A DNA stretch of 64,000 bases from Dictyostelium discoideum (lineage: Eukaryota). The stretch spans positions 64,001-128,000 of the forward strand of contig CM000153.2 in the NCBI GenBank assembly GCA_000004695.1, read 5' to 3'. The position numbers and the translations under genes are program-made. The notes beneath the pieces are model-generated. The model was not told the DNA's origin and did not search any database. It worked only from the letters and a program-made list of their open reading frames with translations. Each line of letters opens with the position of its first letter. Positions within the stretch are counted from its first letter, which is position 1. This document shows positions 5,169 to 60,654 of this stretch, in pieces.

Positions 5169-5390
5169 TTTTTTTATTTTATTAATTATATATAGTTTTT
5201 AAATAAAAAATAAAATAAAATAAAAAAAAAAAAAAATAAAAATAAAAATAAAAATAAAAAATCTTTTTTGTTGGTTTGAAAAAAAAAAAAAAAAAAAAAA
5301 GTGAAAATAAAAAATCTTTCGTTCGTTTTTTTTTTTTGTTGGTTTGAAAAAAAAAAAAAAAAAGATATTTAATCCTTTTTCATTGGATTG

Positions 5391-5395
5391 TTAAG

Positions 5396-5485
<90 letters not shown>

Positions 5486-6422
5486 GAAAAGTAGAAGGAT
5501 TAACTTTTGGATCATCATATGATACAGTTAATAATGTTAAAGGTTCTGGAGAAGCAGTTGGAGGAGCAGCACCTCTATCTTTTTTATCTTTAATTTCTTC
5601 CAATTGTTGAATTGAAATTTCTCCTTCACCAACTTTAATTAAGGAAGCAACCATAATTCTAACTTGATTATGAAGGAAAGCTCTAGCTTTAATTTCTATA
5701 CCAAAATATTGTAAACCTGTATTTTTTTTATCTAGATTCTTTTCACCATCACCAATTGGATAATTTGTATTTGATCTTGAAATATTTTGAAAAGATGGAT
5801 TATATTGAAAAATATCTGGTAATGGTAAATCATAAATTTTAATATGAGAAATTGATCTAATTGGTCTAGTGGATGAACATTTTGCACTCCTAAAACTTGA
5901 GAAATCATGAGTACCAATGAACATTTCCGAAGCTTTTCTCATTTCATCAAGATTTAAAATGGGACCAACCAGATATACTCTATCCAATAATTCCAATGGA
6001 ATTTGTTTTCTCCCACAATTTGCCATTACTCTATAGAGATAGGTTCTAGAGGTTGCATTAAATCTACAATGAAATTTGTCATCAACAATCTCTGTTTTTA
6101 TAATTCTAATTGATTTTAAATATTCTTTACCAACATTATAATTTATTGCCATTGTTAATTCTTCTGGTGATAATAGTGGCATTTCAATACCACTTTTTGA
6201 TGTACGAGTTTTAACATCAAAATGTGAAACTTGTCCAACTGCACTAACACCATGATCTGTTCTACTTGACCCAACAATTGGTATTTTATAACCATGAATT
6301 TTCTCTAATGAATCTTCTAATACTTGTTGAACTGGTAATTTTACAACTGGATACTTTAATCGTTGAAATCCAGTAAATGATTTACCAATATATTCATATA
6401 TAATCTTATATCTTGGTGACAT
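5391..6422 (-). CDS. tRNA pseudouridine synthase of the TruA/Pus family, with a C-terminal poly-Gln tail.
   Basis: N-terminal YEYIGKSFTGFQRL, the catalytic-Asp motif region GSSRTDHGVSAVGQV (TruA GxGRTDxGVHA-like), FHCRF, NFxR. Confidence 0.8.
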
Positions 6423-16706: not shown

Positions 16707-17484
16707 ATGTTTTTCCAAGAAAGAAATTTTGCTTATGCGTATGAAATATTAGAATATTTGAAAAACAATAATAGAGATAGAAATGGTTTATACGATGAAA
16801 CAATTTATAATTACATTAAAAACGATGTCAAATGTCCAAAAAATTTAGATGAAATAATAGAATTAATAATCTCACATCAATTAGAATCATCAACAACCAA
16901 GTGTTTCGATAAACATTACAAAACCCTTAGAGGAACATTCCCAATCAAAACATTTGGTTCAACCGCTACAATCTCTGCTTTCCATTTAGTCTATGAAGCT
17001 GATGTTATTGAAATATTCTCCAAATTACATGGTCCAAAGCATAGAAAGTCAAAGACTGCTATGAATGTATTCCGTAAAGAGCATGACTTATACTTTCCAG
17101 GTTTCCATTCCGCATTTGATCAATTCATCTCACATTGCAATGATTGTAATCAAAAGAAACTTATTTCTAGTGAAAAAAAGAACCATGTATCCAAGCAATT
17201 GGATCTTATTAAACAACAACTCAATGACATAGCTCTTAGACAACATTTTTTTTCAAATATTACACAACAATTTCAAAACCATCATCAACCACAACCACAA
17301 CCACAACCACAACCACAACCACAACCACAACCACCAATTAATGTATCAAATGAATACCAAAATGATATTAATAATTCAATAATGGTTGATAATCTACCAA
17401 TTCAACTTCCACAACCAATTTTGCCACAACAAACTTATCAACCAATTCAACAACAACAACCAATTCAACAACAACAACCAATTC

Positions 17485-17543
<59 letters not shown>

Positions 17544-17807
17544 CCAATTCAACAACAACAACCAACTCAACAACAACCAATTCAACAACAACCAATTCAT
17601 CAACAACCAATTCAACAACCATCACCACCACTACAACATCCAAAAATTATTTTCTGTAAAAAACCTGTTGTAAAATCAAATGGTCAAAAGAAGCATACCA
17701 TTGAAATAAGTGATGATTCTCAAGATGATGATGAAGATGTTGTTGAGATTAGAAATAATAATAAGAGACAAAGACTAATCACTATTCAAATTAATATGAA
17801 TGAGTAA
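16707..17807 (+). CDS. Hypothetical protein with a structured N-terminal domain of about 180 aa, then (PQ)n and long poly-Gln.
   Basis: Single 366-aa ORF. The N-terminal part is non-repetitive (..CFDKHYKTLRGTFPIKTFGSTATISAFHLVYEAD..HCNDCNQKK..). The (CCACAA)n and (CAA)n runs encode PQ/Q repeats. Confidence 0.6.
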
Positions 17808-17933: not shown

Positions 17934-21011
<3,078 letters not shown>

Positions 21012-24700: not shown

Positions 24701-26098
24701 ATGGTCATGGTGCGTATACATACAAATAATAATCTTAAGATTCTATATTATTATTTTTTTTAAAAAAAAAAAAGAAAATTATAAAAAAATAATAAAATAA
24801 AAAAAGAAGAAATAAAAAAATAGTAATAATAAATATATTAATTTTTTTTTTTTTTTTTTTATATATTATTTTAGAAATTATACACCTACCCACAAAACAG
24901 CCGTGCTTTCAAAAGTTTAATTGCTGCTAAATACGTCAATGTTGATATTGAAGTACCAGCTTTCAACTTTGAAACTGATCGTTTAACTGAAGAGTTCAAA
25001 ACCAACTTCCCATTAGGTAAAGTTCCAGCTTTATTAACTGAACAAGGTCCACTCTTTGAATCAAACACCATGGCTCGTTATGTTGCTCGTTTAAATAACA
25101 GCACCATCTATGGTTCAGATGCATACACTGCCGCCCTCAATGACCAATGGATTGATTATGCAGCCAACGAAATCGACCCAAATGCCATTCCATGGTTATA
25201 TGCCATCCTCGGTTATTACGATTACAATGCTAAAGACAGCAACAAAGCCAAAGAAAACATGAAAAAAGTCTTAGCTTTCCTCGATGCCCAACTCCTCAAC
25301 AAGCCATTCCTTACTGGTTTCCGTGTCGCTCTTGCCGATATCATCGTTGTTTGTTCATTATTCAACTTTTACAAAATGGTCTTTGAACCAACTTTCCGTT
25401 CCCCATACGTTAACGTCAACAGATGGTTCACCACCTGTATCAACCAACCAAACTTCAAAGCTGTCATTGGTGAATTTGCTCTCTGTGAAAAGATGATGGT
25501 CTACGTTGCTCCAAAGAAGGAAGTCAAAGAAGAAAAACCAAAAGCTGCCCCAAAGAAGGAAGTCAAAGAAGACGCTGGTGACGATGAAGTCGATGAAAAA
25601 CCAAAAAAGAAAAACCCATTAGATGAATTAGCTCCATCAACCTTTGTTTTGGATGAATTCAAACGTACCTACTCCAACAATGAAGTCTCCATGTCCATTC
25701 CATGGTTCTTTGAACACTTTGACAAGGAAGGTTTCTCTGTCTACCAATGTACCTACCAATACAATCACGAATTAGGTCCAGTCTTCAAAACTTGCAACTT
25801 GGTTGGTGGTTTCTTCCAAAGACTCGAAACTCTCCACAAATACGCTTTCGCCTCTATGATCATTTTCGGTGAAGAACAAGGTGGTGCCGTCAAAGATCAA
25901 ACCGTCTCTGGTCTCTGGGTTTTCCGTGGTCAAGATTTACCAGCTGACATGAAAGATTGTGATGATTCTTTAGTCTATGACTGGAAGAAACTCGATGTTG
26001 CTGCTGATAAAGCTATCATTGAATCTTTCCTTGCTTGGGAAGATAAAAACGGTGGTTTCGCTGGTAAGAAATTCTTACAAGGTAAATTATACAAATAA
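24701..26098 (+). CDS. Translation elongation factor 1-gamma (eEF1B-gamma), with a GST-like N-domain and the EF1G C-domain. Two exons: 24701..24709 and 24875..26098.
   Basis: Exon 2 translates as KLYTYPQNSRAFKSLIAAKYVNVDIEVPAF..GKVPALLTEQGPLFESNTMARYVARL..NRWFTTCINQPNFKAVIGEFALCEKM..STFVLDEFKRTYSN..WVFRGQDL..FLQGKLYK*, strongly EF-1-gamma-like. It begins right after a TTTTAG acceptor, so a 5' micro-exon is required. The only ATGs are in ATGGTCATG (24701..24709), followed by GTGCGT. Exon 1 is 9 nt starting at the ATG at 24701. A GT directly after the second ATG (24707) lets the phase-0 exon 2 join in frame. Confidence 0.85.
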
Positions 26099-28081: not shown

Positions 28082-34705
<6,624 letters not shown>

Positions 34706-38022: not shown

Positions 38023-40770
<2,748 letters not shown>

Positions 40771-41229
40771 TTTGATACTTGTGGTAAAATTTTATCTTTT
40801 GGTCAAAAATAAAAAAAATAAAAAAAATAAAAAAAATAAAAAAATAAAAAAAATTAAAAAAAATAAAAAAAAATTAAAAAAATAAAAAAATAAAAAAAAC
40901 TCTTGGTATTAATTATAAAAATAAAAAGATATAGAATCTACAACTATCATATTAATATATGTCTACTTATTTATAAATAATTTTAAAAAGAATATTTAAA
41001 AATTAAAAAAAAAAAAAAAAAGACAAATTCGCTCAATATTCCGAAATTACAAAATTCACCATATAAGGGGACCGACAAAGTGTTTTAATTTTTACAAATA
41101 TTTATATTGCGAAACATTTTAAAAGAATATATTTTTTTTTTTTTGCATAAAAATTTCTTTATTATTTATTTTTTTTTTTTTAATTTTAATTTTTTTTCAA
41201 AAATGTATACCATAAAAATAGTAGCATAA

Positions 41230-41350
41230 CTAAATTATAACTAAAGTTTGCTGTGGAGATGGAACATTTAATTTGTTCTTGCCAGATCACAACACCTATA
41301 AGTTAATAGATTATCTGATTACGGTGGGAAAAAATGATTTGGCGTTGATA
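41230..41350 (-). ncRNA. Candidate small ncRNA locus (class unknown), inferred only from the DUSE-like motif and local composition.
   Basis: An island of about 120 bp of mixed composition (..ctgtggagatggaacatttaatttgttcttgccagatcacaacacctataagttaatagattatctgattacggtggg..) between AT-only stretches. A minus-strand TATA-like cattTATAAtc lies between the motif and the island. It has a partial match to the class I RNA 11-nt motif (minus strand CTCCACAGCAA vs CCUUACAGCAA). Weak. Confidence 0.2.
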
Positions 41351-41409
41351 TAGTAAAGATTATAAATGAAAAATATTTTTTTTTCAAGGTTAATAGTATA
41401 TTCACACAT

Positions 41410-41417
41410 TTATGGGT
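41410..41417 (-). promoter_or_regulatory. DUSE-like motif (Dictyostelium upstream sequence element, [A/T]CCCA[C/T]AA), reading ACCCATAA on the minus strand.
   Basis: Plus strand ttatgggt at 41410..41417. The DUSE is described as sitting about 60 nt upstream of Pol II/III ncRNA genes in Dictyostelium. The adjacent minus-strand downstream region 41230..41350 is unusually GC-rich for intergenic DNA. Confidence 0.35.
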
Positions 41418-41575
41418 CTTTTTTTTTTTTTTTATTTTATTCTTTTTTTCATTTTTTCAATTTTTTTTTTTAGAAAAATTTGAATTATTCCAAAAAAAAA
41501 AAAAAAAAAAAACAAAGCGGGAAGGCAACACTTTTTTTTAAAAATTATTTCAAATAACAGCTAAAATTGTAAAAA

Positions 41576-42310
41576 ATGGGAAAAAGAGATAAAAAAATAA
41601 TAATAGAAGAACCAGAAGAACTAGAGGAAGCAGAAGATGTTTTTGAAGTTGAAAAAATTTTAGATAAAAGAGTTCAGCATGGAAGGATTCAATATAATGT
41701 AAGATGGATAGGATTTTCATCAGATTATGATACATGGGAAGATGAAGATAATGTTGCAGGTTGTCCAGAACTAGTTAAAGAATTTGAAAGTTCAAGACAA
41801 CAAGAAAAAAAAAAAAGTAAAAAAAGAAAACATACTATAATTAACGACGATCCAACTGCAGTAGAAATATCATCATCATCATCACCACCAACCACCAAAC
41901 CTTCATCATCAACAACAGCAGCAGCACCAGCATCATCATCAGCATCAGTAACAACAAAAACAGCAACAGCAACAGTAACAACAGATACATATTTTTCTAA
42001 TAATACTACATCAACACACCAAAAAACAAATCATTCAGTTGAGGTTGAAGAAAATATAAAAAATGAATATATAAAATTTGGTGTACCTTATATTGAAGGT
42101 GTTGGTTTTGAAAATGGTCATTGTGTTGAGGAGGTTATAGGTTGTAAACCCTTTGGTCAAGATAATACACTATTTTTCTTTGTTAAATGGAGAGACCAAG
42201 AAAAATTATCTTGGGTACCAAATGAAATCCTTAAACATAAAGAACCATTACAATTAATTGAGTTTTATGAAAGTAGACTTAAATTTGGTTATAGTGGTCA
42301 GCCAAGTTAA
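41576..42310 (+). CDS. Heterochromatin protein 1 homolog, with a chromo domain and a chromoshadow domain (hcpA/B/C family).
   Basis: Chromo domain: ..VFEVEKILDKRVQHGRIQYNVRWIGFSSDYDTWEDEDNV... Ser/Thr/Ala-rich hinge. Chromoshadow domain: ..EEVIGCKPFGQDNTLFFFVKWRDQEKLSWVPNEILKHKEPLQLIEFYESRLKF.. Confidence 0.8.
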   Translation: MGKRDKKIIIEEPEELEEAEDVFEVEKILDKRVQHGRIQYNVRWIGFSSDYDTWEDEDNVAGCPELVKEFESSRQQEKKKSKKRKHTIINDDPTAVEISSSSSPPTTKPSSSTTAAAPASSSASVTTKTATATVTTDTYFSNNTTSTHQKTNHSVEVEENIKNEYIKFGVPYIEGVGFENGHCVEEVIGCKPFGQDNTLFFFVKWRDQEKLSWVPNEILKHKEPLQLIEFYESRLKFGYSGQPS

Positions 42311-43110
42311 AAAATAAAAAAAAAAAAAAAATAAAAAACGAAGGATAAAAAAAAAAAAATAAAAAAATAAAAAAAAAGAAAACATCTGTACTTTATTAAT
42401 CTTAAATCTTCAAACAATTTCTTTTTTTTTTTTTTTTTTTTTTTAAATCTTTCAATAAAATATATTTCCTCATTTTTCTTCAAAACAAAAAGATAATTAC
42501 AAAAAATGAATGACAAATAATTAAATTCTAAAAATAAAAAAACATTCATTTTATGTATTTTATATTTTGTGTATTTTATGGGTATTCTATTTTTTTATAC
42601 AAAATCGATATTAAAATAAAAAAATTAATTGATTATTTTTTTAAAAAAAAAAATAAAAATAAAAAATAAAAATAATTTAAAAATAAATCAGATTCTCATT
42701 GTTTGGATGGGGTAATTTTTTTGATTATTTATTTTTTTTAATCAAATTTTAAAACGAATAATAAAAACAAATAAATTAATCCAATAAAAAAAATATAAAA
42801 TATAAAATAAAATTAATTATAATATCAAACCTTCTATTTTTTTATTTTTTTTTTTTTTTCTTTTTAAAAGAAAAAATTTAATAAAAACATTTATATTTTT
42901 TTTTTTATTAACAAAAAGAAATCCTCAAAAATATGAAAAAAAAAAAAAATAAAATAAAATTTAAAAAATATCTTGAACATCAAAGAAACTAAAATGTCAA
43001 AATGTTCGTTAATTTCCCAATGGACCATATTTTTTTTGTATTGGGGTGGTTTTTTTTTTTTTTAAAAATAGAATTTTTTTATAAAAAAAATAAAAAAAAT
43101 AAAAAAAAAA

Positions 43111-43145
<35 letters not shown>

Positions 43146-43174
43146 CCTTTTTACTAAAAATATAATAAAGAAGT

Positions 43175-43750
43175 ATGGTTATAAATAAATTAATATTATT
43201 AATTTTATTATTTTTTTGTAAAATTTCATATGTTTTTACACAAAAATTACCAGATGGATTTTGTCCATCACCTTTAATTTATAAAAATTCAACTGACAGA
43301 ATTAGTGATATCAATAGAGGTTATCAATTTATTGGAGAAACAAATTGTGTACAACCTTGTCCATCTTTGGTTTATTCAGAATCTGATTGGAAAAATTTTT
43401 TTGATGCTAGTTTATATGGTGGAGCAATTTCCATATTTTGTTCATTATTTTTATTAATAACCTATAGTCCATTAGTAAATAATAAACATAATAGACATAC
43501 TATTTCAATTATGTTTTTATTTTCTGGAATTTTTATAATGTTGGCATCAAATGGAAGAGTTTTTTGGAATAATAATGAAGGATATTTTGATAGAATTTGC
43601 CCTGAAAAAGGTAGATTTGCAAGACAATCTGATAGATATTGTTTAGCTATGGGAATATTTTATCAATTTGGTTGTTTAACTGGAATGATGTATGTAATTA
43701 TTGATCAATTATAAAAACAAGAAAATAGTAAATTATTAATAAATTATTTT

Positions 43751-43792
<42 letters not shown>

Positions 43793-44589
43793 GGTGGTGG
43801 ACAACATTATCTGTTGATGTATGGATGACAATTAAAAAGATTAAAATTTCAAATCGTCAAATATTTTATTATGCTTGTATTGTTAATTTTTTAGCGATTT
43901 TCTTAACATTTATACCAATTGCAAGAGATCAATATGGTGCTTCAAATTTTGGAATTGGTTGTTGGATTTTAGGTTTGTGGGATCAAGTTTTTGGATTTTG
44001 GGCACCATTAGGTATTTGTTTAACAATTGGTTGTATATTTATTACTCTTATAATGTATGAAATTTATAAAGCAACAGGTCAAATTAAAAAGAAATTATTA
44101 TTAAAATATTATAAACCACTCGTTTTGATAATTTTAATGTTTTTTGAATTTTTTTATATGTTTATTTTCATAACATATATTATTGATCATAGAAATAAAT
44201 ATAATGATGAAGTTGCTGAATATATAGTTTGTATATTAATAAATTCTGGAAATCCAAATTATGATGAAATTTGTAAAATTAAAAGATCAATTCCTCCTGC
44301 AGCTCAATTTTTATTCTTTTTATTTTCTAGATTAATGGGTTTTGAAGGTGTAATTTTCTATGGATTAACTAATCAAACTAAAAGAATATGGTTAAGATCA
44401 TTTTGGTTTAATAATAGAATTTCATTAAAATTTAGATCTTCTTTTAATATTTCTTCAAGTACAAATAGTAGTACAAATACATTTGAAAAACAAACTCCAT
44501 CACATTTAGTTGACCCAATTGATCAATTTGATAATATTGAAATTTCAAATAATCAAAATATAGAATTATCTCAAATCGAAAACAAATAA
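43175..44589 (+). CDS. Frizzled/smoothened-like 7TM receptor (fsl family), with a signal peptide and seven predicted TM helices. Two exons: 43175..43689 and 43794..44589.
   Basis: N-terminal signal peptide plus a Cys-containing ectodomain (..[21 protein letters not shown]..). Seven hydrophobic helices and a post-TM7 ..[15 protein letters not shown].. that resembles the Frizzled K-T-x-x-x-W region. The two track ORFs join via a GTATGT donor (43690, phase 2) and a poly-A..ATAG acceptor (43793). The junction reads ..GCLTGMM|[10 protein letters not shown].. Confidence 0.6.
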
Positions 44590-45029
44590 AAAAAAAAATT
44601 AAAAAAAAATTAAAATAATAAAAAAAAAAAAAAATTAAAAAAAAAAAATAAAAAACCAAAATGTAGTTTTAGACTATCATTAGATGATTTAATTTGAAGA
44701 GAAAAAAAAATATCTTTTGTTGATTTGATTTAAAAAAAAAAAAAAAATTTGATTAGCAAAGCAAAGCGGCAGTGGTTTACAAAAAAAAAAAATTTTGTAA
44801 AGGGGAAGATTAAAAAAAAAAAATAATTAAAAAAAAAAAATATATTTTTGATCTTAGGTTTTGTGATTTTTAAAAATTAAGTACCCCATATTAAACAAAT
44901 TTTAACTAAATTTTGTAGTATGATGGTTTTTTTTTTTTTTTTTTATTGATTACTTTTACTTTTTTTTTTTTTTTATTACTATTATTTAAATTATTCTGTA
45001 TTTAATTATTTTAAAAAATATAAATAAAA

Positions 45030-46049
45030 ATGAAATTATTAATTCTTTTAATAATTTTAATTATAAATTTAAAATTGTATTTATGTAATTTAGAAATTGA
45101 AAATTTATTTATTGAATGGACAAATAAATATAATAAAATATATAGTAATAAAGAATTTTATATGAGATTTAATAATTTTAAAAAGAATAAAGAATATGTT
45201 GATCAATGGAATGAAAAACAATTGGAAACTATTTTAGAATTAAATTTTTTTGCTGATTTATCAAGAAACGAATATATAAATAATTATCTTGCAAGTTTTA
45301 TTGATATTTCAAATATTGAACAAAAGAATACTAAATATGAAGGAAATTTAAAAAATAATTTTAACAATTCAATAAAATCAATTGATTGGAGAAATTTTGA
45401 TGCAGTAACACCTGTAAAAAATCAAGGTTTATGTTCTGGAGCTGGTTATTCATTTTCTGCAATTGGAGTAATAGAAAGTTCACATTTTATTAAAAATAAA
45501 GAATTAATAACATTATCTGAACAAAATATTATTGATTGTACAACTGATATGGGCAATAATGGTTGTATGGGTGGACTTGCTTTAATTGCATTCGACTATA
45601 TTATTAAACAAAAAGGAATTGACAGTGAATTTAATTACCCATATGAAGGATACCTAATAGAACCATATGAAGGTAGAGGAAGATGTCGTTATAATTCATT
45701 CTATTCAAAAGCTTCAATTAGTTCATATATTGAAATTGAAAGATTCAATGAGAATGAATTAACTCAATCTCTAATAAAATCTCCAGTATCTGTAATGATT
45801 GATGCTTCACAATTATCATTTATGCTTTATAAATCTGGTGTTTACAAAGATCCATCTTGTTCAAGTACAATATTAAATCATGGAATATTAAATATTGGAT
45901 TTGGTGTGACACCTGAAAATGGTAATGAATATTATATTTTAAAAAATTCTTTTGGTTCGAAATGGGGAATGAAAGGTTACATTTATTTATCTAGAAATTT
46001 TAATAATCATTGTGGTATATCTTCAGTTGGAATTTCTGTTGTTATTTAA
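45030..46049 (+). CDS. Papain-family (C1, cathepsin L-like) preproprotein that lacks the catalytic cysteine; probable secreted pseudoprotease.
   Basis: Signal peptide MKLLILLIILIINLKLYLC. Propeptide with an ERFNIN-like EFYMRFNNFKKNKEYVDQWN. The mature domain has the oxyanion Gln, His (..LNHGILNIGFG..) and Asn (..LKNSFGSKWGMKGYIYL..). The active-site block reads QGLCSGAGYSFSA instead of QGxCGSCWxFS, so the nucleophilic Cys25 position is Ala/Gly. Confidence 0.75.
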   Translation: MKLLILLIILIINLKLYLCNLEIENLFIEWTNKYNKIYSNKEFYMRFNNFKKNKEYVDQWNEKQLETILELNFFADLSRNEYINNYLASFIDISNIEQKNTKYEGNLKNNFNNSIKSIDWRNFDAVTPVKNQGLCSGAGYSFSAIGVIESSHFIKNKELITLSEQNIIDCTTDMGNNGCMGGLALIAFDYIIKQKGIDSEFNYPYEGYLIEPYEGRGRCRYNSFYSKASISSYIEIERFNENELTQSLIKSPVSVMIDASQLSFMLYKSGVYKDPSCSSTILNHGILNIGFGVTPENGNEYYILKNSFGSKWGMKGYIYLSRNFNNHCGISSVGISVVI

Positions 46050-46199
46050 ACAAAATAAAAAAAAAAAATAAAAAAAACTAATAAATTTTAATTTTAAATA
46101 AATAAATAAATAAATAAGTGTTTTTGTTTTATTATTATTATTAAACTTTCTAGGATAAATCAACTAAAACAAAAAAAACATTGATTTTTTTTTTTTTTT

Positions 46200-47283
46200 T
46201 TAAAGCAAAGCAAAGATAATTGAGAAAATAATTAAAGCAAAGAATGGAATAACAGTTGATGATGAACCTGGTTCATTGTCGTTATAACTTTCACTGTTCA
46301 TACTTGTTGACATATCACCATAGTATGAACCATTTGCACAAATGACATCCCATTTCCAATCCATTGGAAGATTTAAACTGTAATCAGCATCTTGAATTAA
46401 AGCAATGACACCTTGACCACAACGAGAACCACCAACATCACTATTACCTTTATCAGTAAAGTTATGAACGGCCATACCTCTACCAATGACTAAAGCGGCA
46501 GTGACATGATCAGTCTCATAATAATAGTAACCAGTATCCATCATATCTTGAGAGAAAGCACAGAAATTACCAAAATCACCATAATGTCTAGTTCCAGATG
46601 GTGGGAGAGAATGTTCTTGACCAGTCTTTAAGAAATGACCACCAATTGAAGTACCATTATCCGATGAAACATCACCAAATTGATGAACATGGAAACCATG
46701 AGCTTGATAAGATAAACCGGAAACTTTAGCAGATACTTGAATGAATGAAGAATTGAGTGCTTTGAATAAAACTCTACCTTCAATGTAATCACCTTTGGTG
46801 ATGGTAGTATTGTAAACTACTGCTAAACCAATTGCATTCTCTAAATTTGAATAGGATGATGCAGTGTTGACACCTGTTAATTTAGATTTATCAAATGATG
46901 AATAATCGATATTACCAACACCAATAGTACAAAAACTAATCATATCACCAATTACTGATTTACTTGGATCTGAACAATCATAACTACCACCATAGATTGC
47001 AATTGAACGACCAATAATTGAATTGGCATCATCTTTAATATTTGGAATGTTTAATGAAATTGTTTGTGCTTCAACATTACCACCATTTGCTTGAATATTA
47101 CCAATATCACCTGCACGTGGTGTTCCACTTGGACATCCTGCTGTCTTTACATTGGTTGGATCAAATACACTTCCTAAATTGGTCATTGATGATGGATTAT
47201 AACCATATGTTAAAATTTGTGCAGCAAATTGTGTATTTTGTGCATATGATGTTGTAAAATCAAATGTAATATTTAATGTTGTT

Positions 47284-47326
<43 letters not shown>

Positions 47327-47541
47327 TAAAATAATTTAAATAAATAAATAGTTAATAATTATTCCAAATTTTTTTTTGGAAAATATTATTTTTAAACACT
47401 TACATCAGTACTTAAAAGATGAGCAATACCTTCAACACCACCAATTGATAATTCATTGAATTTACAAAAAGCATATTGGTAATCGGCTTTTGCAATGGAA
47501 ATAACTGAAATCAAAAATACTAATACAGATAAAAGTCTCAT
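46200..47541 (-). CDS. sodC: Extracellular GPI-anchored Cu/Zn superoxide dismutase-like protein (SodC-type), about 407 aa. Two exons: 47404..47541 and 46200..47285.
   Basis: SOD1 fold and ligands in ..AHGFHVHQFGDVSSDNGTSIGGHFLKTGQEHSLPPSGTRHYGDFGNFCA..HVTAALVIGRGMAVHNFTDKGNSDVGGSRCGQGVI... Hydrophobic C-terminal tail (..VIPFFALIIFSIIFALL), consistent with a GPI signal. Upstream minus-strand exon MRLLSVLVFLISVISIAKADYQYAFCKFNELSIGGVEGIAHLLSTD (signal peptide), then a GTAAGT donor and a phase-0 acceptor before GTTLNITFDF... The first SOD-like half lacks the metal ligands. The 407-aa total matches my recollection of SodC. Confidence 0.7.
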
Positions 47542-47875
47542 TTTTTATTTTGAGATAAATAATCAATCAGACTGTAACTTGGAGGAGAAAAAAAAAAAAA
47601 AAAAAAAAAAAAATGGCTATACGGAAAAAAAATTTTTTTAAAAAAAAAAAAAAATAAAAAAAAAAATAAAAATAAAAATAAAAATCAGAAAAGATATTTT
47701 TTTTTTTTTTTTTTAATAACAAACCAACTGCCTGCCACTTGGGTATTATTTGAAAAATAACAATCAAATAATTTATGAACTAATTTCTTGAAAATATCTA
47801 AAAAAAAAAAAATAAAAAATAAAAATAAATAAAAAAAAAAAAAATATTTAGACACTTAAGATAAAAACCAGATTT

Positions 47876-47918
47876 GTGAATTTAGGGATTTTTTGGTTGT
47901 AAATTTAGGGATTTTTGG

Positions 47919-47920
<2 letters not shown>
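47876..47920. repeat. Tandem duplication of a 22-23-bp unit (gt[g/a]aatttagggatttt(t)tggtt) about 330 bp upstream of the sodC-like start codon.
   Basis: Two adjacent near-identical copies, each containing TTTAGGG. Confidence 0.8.
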
Positions 47921-47958
<38 letters not shown>

Positions 47959-49296
47959 AATAAAAAAATAATCACTTCATTTTTTTTATTCTTATATGAC
48001 TTTGTGTATTTTTGAATGTTCTATTTATCTAAACTAAATTGATATTAAAAATTAAATAATTGTTTTTAGTGAAAAATAAAAAAAAAATAAAAAAAAAAAG
48101 AAAATTTTCATTTTTTTGTGTTAAATTTTTTTTTTTTCAACTTTTTTTTATTTTTAACAATTTTCCCAACACATTCAATGTCTCGTCTAAATTTAAACTT
48201 TTTTTTAGAGTGGTCGTCTGATTTTATATATTTTAATAGATGGACTTCAACTTCACCAGGTAAAACTATTTTTCTTGTAAGTTCCCAATGATAATAATAA
48301 TAATAATAATAAAGATTTAAGAAATTGACTAACATTCACAAAAATTAAAAAAAGGAAAAGGATAATTCCCTTTCATTAACAAGGGATTGGTATGCATCAA
48401 CTTCATCTATTCCCTCCCAACAAATACTTTATTGTATTATATTTATTCTATTTTATTATATTGCATTTTGTTAAACATAAGAGTTGAACAATGGATTTTT
48501 TTAAAAGAAAAAAAAAAAAAATAAATAAAAAAATATAAAATAAATTGTAAATAATCCTTATCTTTTTTTTCAAACCACAATATCGATAATAAACTTATTT
48601 TCATAAAAAAAAAAAAAGATTTAAAAAAAAAAAAAAAAAATATCTTATTTGTTGTAAAAACTTGGAAAATAAAAAAAATAATAATAAAAATAATAGTAAT
48701 ATTAATAGTTCATCTTTGGAATAGTTTTTTTATTTTTTTTTTTTTTATTTTTTTTTTTATTTATTTTTCTACATATATTATATTTTTTTTTTTTTTTGAA
48801 TTTTTTAGTAATTTCTCCTCTTTTACCTTCACTTTATTTTTATTATTTTTCTTATTTTTATTATTATTATTTTTTTTTTTTTTTAAAAAAATTTTTAAAT
48901 TAATTTAGATCTCTCTCTAAATTCTTAAAATAGTTTTTTAATTTTGGATAAAATCTAAAAACAATGAAAAAAAAAAAAATTAAAAAATTAAAAAATTAGT
49001 TTCCAAAAAAAGGAATTTTTGTTTTTTTTTTTTATTTATTTTTTTATTTATTTTTTTATTGTTTTTTTTTTTTATTTTTTATTTTTAAGAGATTCAATTA
49101 AATTGCCTTCACAAAATTGTGTGATTTATTAAAATTTTAAAAAAAATAAAATAAAATAAAAAAAGTAAACCAAAAAATAATAATAAAATAAATAAAAAAA
49201 AAAAATAAAAAAAAATAATCTTTTCTTTATTTTATTTTTTTATTTTTTATTTTTTAATTTTTTGTATAACAAACTTAAAGATACAAAACAGTTGTA

Positions 49297-49344
<48 letters not shown>

Positions 49345-49430
49345 TATTATAAAAATAATAAATAATAATAAATAATAAATTACAAATAATAAATAATAAA
49401 TAATAATAAATAATAAATAATTTTTAAAAA

Positions 49431-50507
<1,077 letters not shown>

Positions 50508-51314
50508 TTAATAAATATTTATTTTAAACTTTAAAGAATTCTTTTTTCCTTTTTTTTTTTTTTCTTTTTTTATTTCTTTTTTTTACAAATCTTTTTTCGC
50601 AAAAAATTAAAAACAAACCCAAAGAATTCCTTTTTTTCCATTTATTTTAATTGTTTCCAATAAAATAATAATACAATTTTGAATTATTAATTAAAGAATA
50701 TTAAAGGCAAATTAAAATGTAGGTAAACTTATTATCTTTATTATTTTTTTTTTTTAATAATTTTTTGCCTAATTCAAAAAAACTAATCTTGGTCTAGACT
50801 TTTACCTTTAAATTTTAAAAAAATAAAAAAGAATTTTTTTATGTTTGGAAACAATGAAAAATGTAGTTTTATAACATATAAAACCAATTTTCAATATTAT
50901 TTTATTAAATAAAGATTTATGTTGTAAACTAATTGACTTTGACTGATATTTTTGACTGTTTATAAAAAAAAAAATTTATAAAAAAAAAAAAAAAGGTACT
51001 GATACACGACTACTGTTAATTTACTATTGTTGCGTTGTTGTTACAACATAATAAATAGTTGCTGTTGTTACCAATGAAGATGACTAACCATTTAATTAAG
51101 AAGAAGAAAGGGGAAGGGAGGGGGAGAAATGGATTATAAATAGCCATTATTTGAAGTAATTGATACCACAAAGAAAAAAGCCATAACTTTACCATTTAGA
51201 GATATTGAAATAACTAAAATGTTCCACTATCACCACCACCTCACCTTTTACCTATTCGTGCGAGTAGTTAAGGTTGGGTGTTGAACATTTCAAGTTACTC
51301 CAATGTTATTCGGG

Positions 51315-55166: not shown

Positions 55167-57607
55167 AAGGTATTTTAATATTATATTATGATCAAGCAAT
55201 TGTTCAATCAATTGAAGGTAGACAAATTGGTAAAACTGGTTTAACAAGAAGTAATGATGATGATGATGATGGCAAAGGTCAATATCAAAAAGTAATGATT
55301 AAAAAGAAGGAAGTTTATTTTCAAGAGGATTTTGCAATGGCAATTGGTAATAAATGGATAAAGATTATTTTATCAGTTGGTGAAGAAGAGTTTAAGAATG
55401 GTTCAATCTTTTTGAAGACAGATAGTATTATAAAAAAGAAAAAAGAGGAAAAAAAAGAAAAAAAGGCACCAATTCTAGCAGCAGCTCATAGACCAAAAGG
55501 ATTTCAAGTACCAGTGAAGGGATTGGAGAAAGCAGTACGTCTTTCCAAACCATTACATAACCCATTGGCACCCAATTCATTGGTATTGTTTACACCAGTC
55601 GATATCACTGGTGAGAATAGAATTCATTGTGTTGTAGATCCTATATTATCACAAAAACTTAGACCACATCAAAGGGAGGGTGTTCAATTCATGTTTGATT
55701 GTTTGTTGGGATTTAGAGGTGGTTTCAAAGGTAATGGTTGTATTTTAGCCGATGATATGGGTTTGGGTAAATCAATTCAAGCGATCACTATCCTTTGGAC
55801 ACTCTTAAAACAAGGTCCTAAGGGTGAATCGACTGCAAAGAAGGCTGTAATCGTTGCACCATGTACTTTGGTTGGTAATTGGGGTCAGGAATTAAAGAAA
55901 TGGTTAGGTGATGGTGTAAATACGGTTGCAATTGGTGAGAGTACAAAAACAGGTCGTGCCAAATTGACAGAGTTGGAATTTGGTAAAGCAGATGTACTCA
56001 TCATTTCCTATGATCAACTTCGTATCTATTGCGAGGATATTTGTAAGATTACATCGATTGGTTTGGTAATTTGTGATGAAGGTCATCGTTTGAAAAATGC
56101 AGAAATTAAAACCACCAAAGCAGTATCGATGATACCAACAGCTCGTCGTGTTATTCTCTCTGGTACACCAATTCAAAATGATTTAACCGAATTTTATGCA
56201 ATGGTTAATTTCGTTAATCCTGGTGTATTGAAAAATGTTGCAACCTTTAAAAATGTTTATGATGCTCCAATTGTTGCCTCGAGAAATCCAGATGCTTCCG
56301 ATGAAGAGAAGGAGATTGGTCGTCAACGTTCTTTAGAGTTGAGTAGATTAACTAGTCAATTCATTTTACGTAGAACTGCATTTGTAAATACTCAATATCT
56401 TCCACCAAAGGTAGAATACGTTATCTTTTGTAAACTTACACCTCTTCAACTTTCAATCTATAAACATCTCATTAAAGAAGCAAAAGATTCTGCATTTGCA
56501 TCGACAACTGGTGCCTTACCATTAATTACCACATTGAAAAAGTTATCAAATTGTGCAGAGTTGGTTTACACACCCGATAAAGAGACAGATGTTGGTACCT
56601 CCATATTAAAGTTATTCCCAAAGGAATGGAATCCAAAAGTTTTCCAACCACAATACTCTAGTAAGTTATTGTTTGTAGATCGTTTACTTGCAAATATTAG
56701 AAACTCAAAATCTGGTGATAAAACTGTAATCATTTCAAATTATACTCAAACCTTGGAAGTATTGGCAACAATGTGTAAAACTCGTGGTTACGCATACTTT
56801 CAATTGGATGGTTCGACAGCCAATGCTAAACGTCAACAATTGGTCAATCTTTATAATGACCCAGCCAGACCAGAGTTTGTATTTCTTCTTAGTTCAAAAG
56901 CAGGTGGTGTTGGTTTGAATCTTATTGGTGGTAATCATTTGGTTTTATTCGATGCAGATTGGAATCCAGCAAATGATGCCCAATCTATGGCTCGTGTTTG
57001 GAGAGAAGGTCAAAAAAAAATCGTATCCATTTATCGTACCTTTACAACTGGTACCATTGAAGAGAAAATCTTTCAAAGACAATTAACCAAACAAGCACTT
57101 TCAACAAGTATCACTGAAGGGGATTCTGATAATTCACCATCTTTTGACTCAAAGGATTTAAAAGATATTTTTACACTTCGTGAAGATACACTTTGTGATA
57201 CTCATGATATGTTAAGTTGTAAATGTGCACCTACTGTTGGTGGTAAAATCCCAAAACATAAAAGAGATACCATGTCTATTAGTGAACTTAATTCATGGCA
57301 TCATTTCCATCAAATGGAAAAAATTAAAGATCAAAAAGTTGCTTCAGCATGTCAAGATATTGCAACATTTGTTTTTGTAAATGATAAAGGTCCAGTTGAT
57401 AAAAACAAATCAAAAGAAAAAACTTCAAATACTACTACAACTACTACAACTACCACTTCAACTTCAACTTCTAAATCTGAAAAATCATCACCACCACCAT
57501 CTTCATCAAAACATAAGAAAAAAATTATTGAAGAATCAAGTGATGAAGATGATGATACACCAGATGAAGCTTCAAGTGATGAAAGTTATAATTCTGATAG
57601 TGATTAG
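54731..57607 (+). CDS. rad54: Rad54-type SNF2-family DNA repair/recombination ATPase. Two exons: 54731..55088 and 55170..57607.
   Basis: SNF2 motifs: ..LRPHQREGVQFMFDCLLG..GCILADDMGLGKSIQAITILWTLLKQ..VIVAPCTLVGNWGQELKKWLG..DEGHRLKN..ILSGTPIQNDLTEFYAMVNFVNPGVL..HLVLFDADWNPANDAQSMARVWREGQKK.. A Rad54-like N-terminal exon (MKRSLAPSAIYENKKLKYDLP..) joins through GTTTGT (55089, phase 1) to a TTTTTAAG acceptor (55169). Acidic/Ser-rich C-terminal tail. Confidence 0.8.
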
Positions 57608-57767
57608 TTAAAAAAAAAAAAAAATTTCAAAATAATAATAATAACATAATAATAAACTGATGATTTTGTAAATGTACATAAAAATTTCTTTTTCAATTTT
57701 TTTTTATTGATTTATTTAAACTTTTTCTTATTATTTATTTTTTTTATATATTTTTTTATTTATTTTT

Positions 57768-57826
<59 letters not shown>

Positions 57827-58510
57827 TATTAATGGTTGAGAATATTTCAAATGGTGGTAAATAACATGACAAGGTTGTATCATTAAAATATTTTGTATTT
57901 AAACATTCACCATCATTGTATTATTATTATTATAAAGACAAAACCATTCACCATTCATTGTGATAGTACTATCAATTTTGAAATTGAAATTGTATCATAT
58001 TTTTGTTTAAATATTAAATTTTGATTAGTAACCCGAGTTACATTTATTAAACAGCTTCCACTTGGTAATTTAGTTTGAAGAGTTCTAATTATACCACTTT
58101 TTTTCAGTACTATTATTAATTGAATAATTAGAATTTGTAATATTAATGTTGTCGAAATAGTAAATCTGTATTATTTTTATTTAAACCACCACATTTTATT
58201 TATTGATCCACAAGCATAAACTAAAGGGTTGTAACATTAACTGTTAAATAAAATATCTTGGATTAATTAAAATTGAAATTTTATCATAAATTTTTACAAA
58301 TATGATTATCATCATTAACTTTTAATATAATTAATTCATGGTCAATAGAGAATATTTTATAGTTTTTATTGTTAACAGTTACTAATCACCAATTTTACAC
58401 TTTACATCATGTTGGAGATTTTAAAACTTTCTTCACAGAGCAACAACAAAATACAGATAATATCCTTGAATTATCAATAAATAAATATATTTTTTTAAAA
58501 ATATTTGAAA

Positions 58511-58740: not shown

Positions 58741-59537
58741 TTAATTAATTAAAAAATTTTTGGGTGGAAAATTATCATAATCAGTTGAAATTTGATTAGA
58801 GAATGGTCTTGTAGCAAATGATTGAATTAAATGATCAATGAAATCAGTATCATTTGGATATTTTTGTTTTAAATTTGGATTTGTTTTTAAAACTGATAAA
58901 GATTTCTTTAATTTTGATAAAGTTGTTGAACGTTCCATAGTTGTTTTAAATTGTGATAACATTTCAAAGAAAATCACACCAACACTATATAAATCAGTTT
59001 TTTGATTATAATTATCACCTTGTTCTTGTTCATTACTACTATATAAATAAGTGCCTAATCCACCCACCTTTTTATTGTTATTATTGTTATTGTTAATGTT
59101 ATTGTTATTGTTATTGTTACTATCTACTGTTAATGATTCAATCGTAGTTGCTAAACCGAAATCACCAATTTTAATACCAAATGGTGATTGACAAACAAAT
59201 ACATTATCAGGTGTAATATCACGATGAACGAAACCTTGTGAATGAATATATTTCAATGCAACTAAGATTTGTCTAGTTATCTCTCTACATTGTTTAATAT
59301 CCAATGATATCAATATATTGGTTCCAATTGGATTTGCAATGGATGATGTTGATTGAATTGATGTTATTGATTTAATATTATTAATTTCATTTATTAAATT
59401 TCTTAATGTACTATATTTACATAATTCCATTTGTATATATAATGAAAATTTCTTTTGTTTTAATTGATTATAATTATTATTATCATCATTTGTGCATTCA
59501 CTTATTGATAAATTTCCATTACCTATACTATAACTAC

Positions 59538-59568
<31 letters not shown>

Positions 59569-60654
59569 GTTTGAAATATATGTTGCTTTGTTATTTGAAT
59601 AACTATTTGATGAATTTGAAACTAATGATGATGATGATGCTGCTGCTGATACTGATGAATAAGAAGATGATGGAAATGAATCAATATTCTCAAATAAGTT
59701 ATTATCATTTTCACCATAATGATCAATTGAGTTATTTGTTATAATTTCTTCTTCAATCCAAGAACCATAATATCTTACGATATTAGGATGATTTAATCTT
59801 GCCATTGCTCTAACTTCCATTAATTCTTTTGTTGGAATTTTTTGATTTACTTTGATTCTTTTTACTGCATATTCCATTTGGTCAAATATATTACAACATT
59901 GAAAAACAATACCAAACCCACCTTTACCAAGTACTCTTACATCATTAAATTCATTATTAAATCTACTATTATTATTATTATTATTGTTATTTAAAGATTT
60001 TGATGATACTGACGATGATGACGATAATGTTGATGATGACGATGATGATGCTGATGATGATGCTGATGATAAAGTTTGTGATGACTCTGATAATGATGAA
60101 GAAGATGATGAAGAAGATATTGAATCATTGTTATAATTATCATTATTATTATTATCAATAAGATTATTATTATCATTATTATTATTACTATTAGTTAAAC
60201 TATTATTAATACTATTTAAGTGAAGTAAACTTGAATTTAATTTATTTAATGTATTGATTTTTGAAGCTAGTGAAATCTTTTTATTACTAATTTTTGAAAC
60301 AGATATACCAGAATCTGCTAATAAATTGGTCATTTGACTAATATCCTTATTGTTAATAGCCACTAAAGTAATGTTACTTCTATGTGATGCTCTATTAAAT
60401 TTGTTATTATTTTTAATATTATCATTATTATTATTATTGCTATTGCTATTGTTAGTATTATTATTATTATTATCTATTGATTTTGTTGTGCTATTGTTTT
60501 GTGTATTGGCAGCAGTGATTGGTTTTGAACTTTCATTATTATTATTATTATTTGAACCATTAAAATTTAAACTGAACAAAAGACTTCCATTATTATTATT
60601 ACTCGAAAGTGAATTTCCAATTCTTTTGGTTGCACTCGAGGTAAACTTCCACAT
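58741..60654 (-). CDS. Protein kinase with eIF2-alpha-kinase-like features (large kinase insert, FxTxMER-like motif). Asn-rich N-terminus.
   Basis: Kinase motifs: ..VLGKGGFGIVFQC.., ..YAVKRIKV.., ..HRDITPDNVFV.., ..GDFGLATT.., then an Asn-rich activation-loop insert, ..GTYLYSSNEQEQ.. and ..FKTTMERSTTLSKLKK... The last resembles the eIF2AK ..T.MER...L..LR.. block. Confidence 0.55.

Follow-up and report, generated by a model that had tools for sequence, protein, structure and literature searches.

The stretch of Dictyostelium discoideum DNA analyzed here (contig CM000153.2, positions 64,001 to 128,000 of the forward strand; 64,000 nucleotides, referred to as the window) has a G+C content of 23% and carries, next to the gene of an extracellular superoxide dismutase, the gene DDB_G0282991, which is the subject of this report. 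In the list of open reading frames (ORFs) of the window, DDB_G0282991 is a single, intron-free exon at 45030..46049 on the plus strand, which leads from ATG to TAA and encodes 339 amino acids (aa). The translation matches exactly the D. discoideum AX4 entry XP_639299.1 / UniProt Q54RQ2, so that the window derives from the nuclear DNA of AX4. At the composition of this coding sequence (CDS), the stop probability per random codon is ~0.10, and the chance of finding 339 open codons is about 2e-16. The database name of the product is "hypothetical protein" only, and full-text literature searches retrieved no mention of DDB_G0282991 or Q54RQ2 in the main text of any paper. From the evidence given below, the product is a cathepsin L-like preproprotein of the papain family, in which the catalytic cysteine is replaced by glycine. 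The gene and its features are the following, with positions given in the window and the evidence in brackets.

45030..46049, plus strand: CDS of DDB_G0282991, a cathepsin L-like prepro-pseudoprotease (ORF list; identity with XP_639299.1 / Q54RQ2; end-to-end alignment with procathepsin L, 1e-60)
45030..45086, plus strand: putative signal peptide, aa 1-19, MKLLILLIILIINLKLYLC (hydropathy; putative cleavage site)
45108..45275, plus strand: Inhibitor_I29 propeptide domain, aa 27-82 (Pfam PF08246; motif regular expression; helices of the AlphaFold2 model)
45153-45212, plus strand: ERFNIN-type motif, aa 42-61 (regular expression)
45375..46028, plus strand: Peptidase_C1 (papain-fold) domain, aa 116-333 (Pfam PF00112; AlphaFold2; Foldseek)
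45423..45461, plus strand: altered active-site block Q132-A144, QGLCSGAGYSFSA (phmmer and MAFFT alignments; helix start in the AlphaFold2 model)
45423-45425, plus strand: Gln132, the equivalent of Gln19 (alignments)
45435-45437, plus strand: inserted Ser136 (alignments)
45444-45446, plus strand: Gly139 (GGT), in place of the nucleophile Cys25 (alignments)
45654..45674, plus strand: ~7-residue loop insertion specific to the clade, at around aa 209-215 in EGYLIEPYEGRGRC, immediately N-terminal to Cys219 (alignment gaps)
45879..45881, plus strand: His284 (CAT), the equivalent of the catalytic His159 (invariant column)
45945..45947, plus strand: Asn306 (AAT), equivalent to Asn175; the next residues are Ser-Phe308, in contrast to Ser-Trp177 of active enzymes (invariant Asn)

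By homology and fold, the DDB_G0282991 product is a member of the C1A (papain) family and belongs to its cathepsin L-like (ERFNIN) group. Both domains of a cathepsin precursor are recognized by Pfam well above the respective cut-offs, with 44.5 bits against 24.4 for Inhibitor_I29 (2e-11) and 212 bits against 20.7 for Peptidase_C1 (1.5e-62). Within the propeptide, the ERFNIN-type motif reads E42-x3-R46-x3-F50-x2-N53-x3-V57-x3-N61, with Val in place of Ile, and a GNFD-type motif, ELNFFAD, is found at aa 70-76, with Glu in place of Gly. The N-terminus is strongly hydrophobic (mean Kyte-Doolittle value of 3.45 for residues 3-13) and closes with a small residue, either Cys or Ser, in the orthologues; no later stretch resembles a membrane span. 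Among relatives of solved structure, phmmer lists procathepsins L, S, and K as best matches, with E-values from 1e-60 down to about 2e-53 and with the alignments extending from the propeptide to the C-terminus. The AlphaFold2 model, which was built on an alignment of 78 sequences, has a mean predicted local distance difference test score (pLDDT) of 93.2 and a predicted template modelling score (pTM) of 0.90, and the propeptide is modelled as two long helices (H2-33 and H40-62). Accordingly, the closest structures in Foldseek are procathepsins L, S, K, and H, with template modelling (TM) scores, normalised to the target, of 0.8-0.9; for procathepsin L (1CS8) the TM-score is 0.88 and the E-value 3e-32. 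Mature cathepsin S (1MS6, 1GLO) matches with a TM-score of 0.97 and a root mean square deviation (rmsd) of 0.9 Å, the rmsd for mature cathepsins S and L being about 1 Å. The preliminary description of this DNA, made without database searches, had predicted a cathepsin L-like prepro architecture with a signal peptide and an ERFNIN-type propeptide, all of which is borne out, the signal peptide as a putative one that is judged from the hydrophobic N-terminus only.

The protein possesses cysteines at positions 19, 135, 170, 179, 219, 277, and 328 only. The latter six are invariant and would form the disulfides 135/179, 170/219, and 277/328, a pairing that is assumed from the papain pattern (22-63, 56-95, 153-200, resp.); there is no unpaired cysteine in the mature domain. 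Since these six canonical disulfide cysteines are the sole ones downstream of the signal peptide, no thiol is available as a nucleophile in the mature protein. The loop insertion preceding Cys219, which corresponds to a gap of 7 residues in procathepsin L and of 6-7 residues in other homologues, is kept in all members of the clade of close relatives described below. In the model, this loop is the part of the mature domain with the lowest confidence (block mean pLDDT of 70).

The crucial difference from active enzymes resides in the active-site block, which consists of the residues Q132 G L C135 S136 G137 A138 G139 Y140 S F S A and is aligned by phmmer with procathepsin L as 'knqglcsgagysfsa' against 'knqgqc-gscwafsa'. 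In terms of papain, Gln132 is equivalent to Gln19, Cys135 to Cys22, Gly137 to Gly23, Ala138 to Ser24, Gly139 to Cys25, and Tyr140 to Trp26, while Ser136 is an insertion. This placement of Gly139 is concordant in four alignments (i.e., the phmmer pair and MAFFT alignments of 13, 78, and 242 sequences), none of which puts a cysteine at the catalytic position, and the central helix of the AlphaFold2 model begins at residue 139, as it does at the Cys25 site in the family. The nucleophile position, given in the preliminary description as 'Ala/Gly', is thus resolved to Gly139, and the one-residue insertion already noticed there is Ser136 in the same four alignments. The oxyanion Gln132, the catalytic His284, Asn306, and the disulfide cysteine Cys135, which had likewise been reported as kept, are invariant. 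Of the catalytic dyad Cys25-His159, only the histidine (His284) is present, Gly139 occupying the site of the cysteine. The Cys25 column in the 233 other homologues that were collected contains Cys 229 times, Ser three times, and Phe once; hence four sequences (about 2%) are devoid of Cys25, and the one-residue Ser insertion is found in none of the 233. At the position of Trp177, each of the six aligned clade members has Phe (Phe308); Trp is found there in 69 of 72 active-type homologues. A GSCW motif is not restored in the other reading frames of the active-site DNA. The nucleophile Cys25 is replaced by Gly139 in DDB_G0282991, and the protein cannot be a thiol protease. Judged by its catalytic dyad, it does not count as an active peptidase and has its place among the natural non-peptidase homologues of C1A.

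Hydrolysis by a different chemistry has to be weighed on the same residues. In this case, Ser136, or a water molecule activated by His284/Asn306, would substitute for the thiol, by analogy with Cys-to-Ser members of the family such as silicatein. Compatible with this are the presence of His159, Asn175, and Gln19 in every clade member, the invariance of the inserted serine, and the existence of natural Cys-to-Ser relatives (silicatein P0091). However, it is Gly, not Ser, that is found at the nucleophile position in all alignments and at the predicted start of the helix, while Ser136 is located three residues upstream, in a loop beside the disulfide cysteine Cys135. In addition, Trp177, the shield of the His-Asn pair, is now Phe, and Trp26 is now Tyr. 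Even engineered Cys25Ser enzymes of the papain family are nearly inactive. A hydrolase with a non-thiol nucleophile is, therefore, improbable.

Close relatives of DDB_G0282991 were found by protein searches in the D. discoideum species complex only. Identities are 88-96% in other D. discoideum or D. cf. discoideum assemblies, 83% in D. citrinum, 76% in D. dimigraforme, and 75% in D. firmibasis; beyond this clade, they drop to 40-44% and the matches are ordinary, Cys-containing proteinases. The exchange of Cys for Gly and the Ser insertion are common to all nine clade sequences, each of which contains the motif C-S-G-[A/S]-G-Y-S-F; these sequences come from independent assemblies and represent at least five species. 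With regard to an artefact of the AX4 reference, be it of sequencing, assembly, or annotation, nothing beyond the unusual motif itself speaks in its favor. The motif recurs in three further D. discoideum or D. cf. discoideum genomes, in Logan assemblies of six sequencing runs, and in D. firmibasis, D. citrinum, and D. dimigraforme. Around it, the codons of the five species differ synonymously (TGT/TGC, TCT/TCG, GGA/GGT/GGG) and leave the peptide unchanged. The independent assemblies thus agree on the QGLCSGAGY region, for which a sequencing error had initially been considered, and the likelihood of an artefact is practically negligible.

The Logan read assemblies encode the same protein as AX4 except for residue 185. 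At this codon (TTA, 45582-45584), the AX4 reference has Leu185 (GGLALIAF), and Ser is found in every other strain and species as well as in the D. discoideum Logan read assemblies (GGLASIAF / GGLSSIAF). S185L looks like a change specific to the AX4 lineage; it adjoins the position that is aligned with the S2-pocket residue Met70 of cathepsin L.

Conservation within the clade extends over most of the family's conserved positions. Among 72 active-type homologues, 101 alignment columns reach a conservation of at least 85%; at 71 of these columns, none of the six aligned clade members shows a change. The fixed differences of the clade are mostly conservative, the exceptions being C139G, P115I, H60W, G150S, and G251S; changes at propeptide positions include W27F and H60W.

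When the loci of the five species are read as DNA, all five are open, with lengths of 336-344 codons, and the order of genes is kept at each of them, comprising a membrane-protein gene, the C1-like gene, and, on the opposite strand, sodC. P0004, the 314-aa protein given for D. citrinum in the database, results from a spurious intron, by which about 22 propeptide residues are dropped; the locus itself (L003:4001-5011) is one open ORF of 336 codons. For the assembly GCA_054859385, which carries the label D. discoideum, the identity with AX4 is only about 87-93% (L013 compared with window positions 40323-50918); it represents a lineage that is clearly divergent rather than a strain almost identical to AX4. 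In the window, the neighboring gene is represented by the following feature.

46200..47186, minus strand: large 3' exon of sodC (DDB_G0282993), extracellular Cu/Zn superoxide dismutase (Sod_Cu, 7.6e-31)

The signal peptide of SodC is encoded by an upstream exon (ORF 47392-47541, minus strand), so that sodC spans 46200-47541. DDB_G0282991 and sodC are arranged tail-to-tail, their stops ending at 46049 (plus strand) and 46200 (minus strand), with 150 bp between them; this agrees with the arrangement relative to a Cu/Zn superoxide dismutase gene that had been described previously for the window, and it is also seen in four sister species. In D. purpureum, a sodC-like gene (50% identical) belongs to a tandem Sod_Cu pair (L014:2223-5424), and no C1-like gene or remnant of one is present within 10 kb of that locus. 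The arrangement is kept only among very close relatives, where it is explained by general colinearity, and is absent at the sodC-like locus of D. purpureum. The adjacency of sodC has no demonstrated functional meaning, and no link between the two genes is supported beyond the adjacency as such.

Selection on the gene was assessed by pairwise ratios of nonsynonymous to synonymous substitution rates (dN/dS, or omega), which were calculated according to NG86, LWL85, and maximum likelihood (ML); YN00 returned nan for most pairs at the extreme AT content. For the whole CDS, dN/dS is 0.18-0.41 by NG86, 0.20-0.46 by LWL85, and 0.03-0.10 by ML, with an upper bound of the bootstrap 95% interval of at most 0.46. 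Separated by regions, the NG86 values are 0.14-0.29 for the mature domain and 0.24-0.75 for the pre-pro region. The sodC exon gives 0.20-0.43 by the same method; sodC is undoubtedly functional, and since its dN/dS lies in the same range, DDB_G0282991 is under a constraint like that of a functional gene. When AX4 is compared with a D. discoideum lineage of ~93% identity across the region, the CDS (96% identity, omega of 0.17) stands out from its less conserved flanks. A best match of only 96% might have pointed to diversifying selection within "D. discoideum"; this was considered and rejected, the whole region being ~93% identical and omega 0.17. In five species, DDB_G0282991 is an intact gene on which purifying selection acts, constraining the mature domain more tightly than the pre-pro region.

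This distribution of constraint bears on the possibility that the functional part is the I29 propeptide, which, once set free, would inhibit active cathepsin L-like proteinases, with the dead domain acting as its carrier. Such a role would be in line with the preservation of the I29 domain and of its ERFNIN and GNFD motifs, with free-standing I29 inhibitors serving as a model; moreover, in a precursor that does not activate itself, the propeptide would be delivered only when active proteases are present. However, omega is 0.14-0.29 for the mature domain versus 0.24-0.75 for the pre-pro region, several conserved propeptide positions are changed, among them those affected by W27F and H60W, and a mere carrier would need neither three conserved disulfides nor an intact cleft. 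It is, thus, quite unlikely that the propeptide is the functional part.

Information on expression is contained in the supplements of two transcriptome studies. In an RNA sequencing (RNA-seq) study by Xiong et al. 2021 (PMC8204557), in which autophagy mutants were compared with AX2, Table S1 contains DDB_G0282991 twice among the differentially expressed genes (DEGs), its transcript being 2.36-fold up in one list and 2.95-fold up in the other. The first mutant list (2.36) is that of atg9-, while the second (2.95) is taken as atg16- from the order of the table (PMC8204557). The gene is, furthermore, among the DEGs of starved cln5- cells, under the Gene Ontology (GO) term "extracellular space" (McLaren et al. 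2022, PMC9686302). Because two RNA-seq DEG supplements list it, DDB_G0282991 is transcribed and regulated at the RNA level. It is not included in the supplements of a cell-type RNA-seq study (PMC6198379) or of a bacterial-response RNA-seq study (PMC7078664), a weak negative result, as these possibly cover selected genes only. At the protein level, DDB_G0282991 was not found in the part of the life-cycle proteome PMC12821622 that is available as supplement text, in which sodC does appear; this, too, is a weak negative. The six Logan contigs were considered as evidence of transcription and rejected as such, for they look genomic: they follow the genome colinearly, contain sequence that lies upstream of the sodC exon, and are interrupted at homopolymer runs.

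On the basis of these data, the question can be addressed of whether the gene is a decaying or recently inactivated pseudogene, or has been drifting neutrally since the catalytic residue was lost, in either case without a function. The loss of the catalytic cysteine, the long stem branch of the clade in the tree described below, the missing match in the proteome supplement text, and the annotation as merely hypothetical would all fit such a fate. On the other hand, the ORFs are open in all five species despite the stop probability of ~0.10 per random codon; dN/dS amounts to 0.03-0.46, depending on the method, with bootstrap upper bounds of <0.5; and the constraint equals that on the functional neighbor sodC. 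In addition, conservation is higher in the coding sequence than in the flanks, and the gene is transcribed and regulated. A pseudogene is, therefore, very unlikely. The view taken in the preliminary description, namely that of a retained gene and not of a decaying pseudogene, is upheld by the motif in nine sequences, the five open ORFs, dN/dS values well below 1, the conservation of the CDS exceeding that of the flanks, and the transcripts.

Concerning its origin, DDB_G0282991 is, in the simplest reading of the sequences, derived from an amoebozoan cathepsin L-like gene by duplication and fast divergence; the duplicate would be older than the split of the five species sampled. In a neighbour-joining tree, the long stem of the DDB_G0282991 clade branches off outside the rest of the amoebozoan cathepsin L-like sequences, a placement that may be a long-branch effect; silicatein and the clade are found on different branches. 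The best named match outside the clade, DICPUDRAFT_153222 of D. purpureum (P0007; 40-42%), was considered as an orthologue and rejected, as its neighbors are different and it is itself most similar (50-53%) to ordinary active proteinases of dictyostelids. An orthologue of DDB_G0282991 was not found in D. purpureum, and the duplicate probably arose after the D. discoideum complex had parted from that species. According to this scenario, a duplicate in the ancestor of the D. discoideum complex would have undergone a phase of fast change, including loss of the nucleophile, insertion of the serine, and acquisition of the 7-residue loop before Cys219, and would have been conserved since.

With a probability of roughly 0.78, DDB_G0282991 encodes a catalytically dead papain-family (C1A, cathepsin L-like) protein that is kept functional by selection, enters the secretory pathway, cannot activate itself, and acts by binding. 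In the mechanism envisaged, the hydrophobic N-terminus would direct the protein into the endoplasmic reticulum, and the I29 propeptide would serve as a folding scaffold and lie over the cleft as it does in procathepsin L. The absence of the Cys25 nucleophile makes self-activation of the zymogen impossible. Without acid-triggered self-activation, the protein would either persist as a pro-form or be trimmed in trans by active cysteine proteinases that the cell has in its lysosomes or secretes. With the elements of the cleft preserved (Gln19, the Gly-Gly strand, His159, and Asn175), the mature domain could bind peptide or protein ligands that remain uncleaved, functioning as a binder, trap, or regulator in an endolysosomal or extracellular location. 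Such a role of the mature domain is favored because the constraint is stronger there than on the propeptide. The binding function is what we infer from these features, and the same applies to secretion as opposed to lysosomal residence.

A more specific assignment can be conceived, in which the protein is a lineage-specific extracellular or endolysosomal regulator that has gained a new activity on the dead cathepsin scaffold. It might be a secreted signal or binding factor resembling CfaD, or a trap for substrates or inhibitors by which active cysteine proteinases are tuned under starvation or autophagy stress, its mRNA being raised in atg9-/atg16- cells and altered in starved cln5- cells; less likely, it would be an enzyme of new chemistry that uses the His/Asn pair together with the inserted serine. 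This assignment is rated as unlikely.

Several points weigh against a dead binding protein that is maintained by selection. The retained His159, Asn175, and Gln19 alone do not show that the cleft is used; at an identity of 75-96% among the orthologues, three invariant residues would be expected anyway. The family is very young and narrow, so that long-term retention is not established. The pre-pro region is weakly constrained in some pairs, with omega reaching 0.75, and the protein did not appear in the text of the proteome supplement mentioned above.

The remainder of the window is only loosely related to DDB_G0282991. Immediately preceding the pseudoprotease in each of the five species is a two-exon gene (43175-43714 and 43825-44589, plus strand), whose product of ~413 aa has a Cys-rich N-terminus and a number of hydrophobic stretches; no Pfam match was obtained for it at 1e-3. 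This gene is preceded by one for an HP1-like protein (41576-42310, plus strand; chromo 1e-20, chromo-shadow 1.5e-10), which is found at the same locus in D. cf. discoideum and in the second D. discoideum lineage. Other genes code for an EF-1-gamma-like protein (GST_C and EF1G; 25070-26098), a SNF2-family helicase (55295-57607), and a protein kinase (58741-60654). Short, near-perfect, low-complexity repeats of triplet periodicity are located at about 5390-5490, 17450-17640, 18210-18310, 20335-20570, 31910-32030, and 57700-57830. They cross-match one another as well as intergenic or coding DNA of the sister lineage and are typical Dictyostelium simple-sequence tracts.

As far as annotation is concerned, a "hypothetical protein" that is listed under the GO term 'extracellular space' can now be described as one that cannot be a thiol protease. 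It offers a clean, young example of a pseudoprotease in a haploid model organism with easy knockouts, with orthologues at graded divergence and with hints of regulation in connection with autophagy and lysosomal stress.

Among known systems, human procathepsin L (1CS8/1CJL) has the same overall design, including the signal peptide, the ERFNIN-type I29 propeptide, the papain fold, Gln19, His159, Asn175, and the three disulfides. Compared with procathepsin L and other cathepsin L-like C1A zymogens, DDB_G0282991 shows 34-45% identity, an E-value of 1e-60, and TM-scores of 0.83-0.88. It differs from procathepsin L by the replacement of Cys25 with Gly, the Ser inserted between Cys22 and Gly23, the exchanges of Trp26 for Tyr and of Trp177 for Phe, the 7-residue loop before Cys219, and Ile in place of Pro2 of the mature enzyme. 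Engineered cathepsins devoid of Cys25 are among the closest structural matches, namely, C25A procathepsin S (2C0Y, solved as the zymogen), C25A cathepsin L with a bound peptide (3K24), and C25S cathepsin S (1GLO). They fold normally, stay zymogens, and can hold a peptide in the cleft, which by analogy is the behavior proposed for DDB_G0282991; in contrast to the latter, they are laboratory point mutants of active enzymes and have no insertion.

The silicateins are likewise cathepsin L-like preproproteins in which the nucleophile is replaced and which have been retained for a non-proteolytic role. Silicatein-M2 (P0091), with Ser at the Cys25 column, was retrieved at 38% identity in the same homology search. 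The family is defined also by its sponge origin and by a Ser cluster. The serine of silicatein can still act as a nucleophile, whereas the glycine of DDB_G0282991 cannot; silicateins function in silica deposition in sponges, and the substitutions arose separately. In soybean P34, also known as Gly m Bd 30K, the residue replacing the catalytic cysteine is again Gly. P34 is a glycoprotein precursor of the papain superfamily with pre- and pro-regions, in which the catalytic cysteine is missing and which is devoid of enzymatic function (PMC2292165). By analogy, it is the closest functional parallel to DDB_G0282991, albeit a plant seed vacuolar, oil-body-associated protein of the storage type, in which the cysteine was lost independently in an unrelated lineage and for which a one-residue insertion is unreported; in abundance and biology, it has nothing in common with an amoebal protein. 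A precedent for signalling roles of the cathepsin L fold in Dictyostelium itself is CfaD, a secreted cathepsin L-family chalone of D. discoideum, which as an extracellular signal slows proliferation (PMC4010531). CfaD is the product of a different gene, which was compared by description only, and no evidence links DDB_G0282991 to the control of proliferation.

Papain-family pseudoproteases are, thus, well known from soybean P34 and silicatein, and loss of Cys25 with preservation of the fold is a recurrent event, so that DDB_G0282991 does not constitute a new category. Particular to it are the combination of Gly with a unique one-residue insertion, the restriction to a single species complex, and the tractable host in which it occurs.

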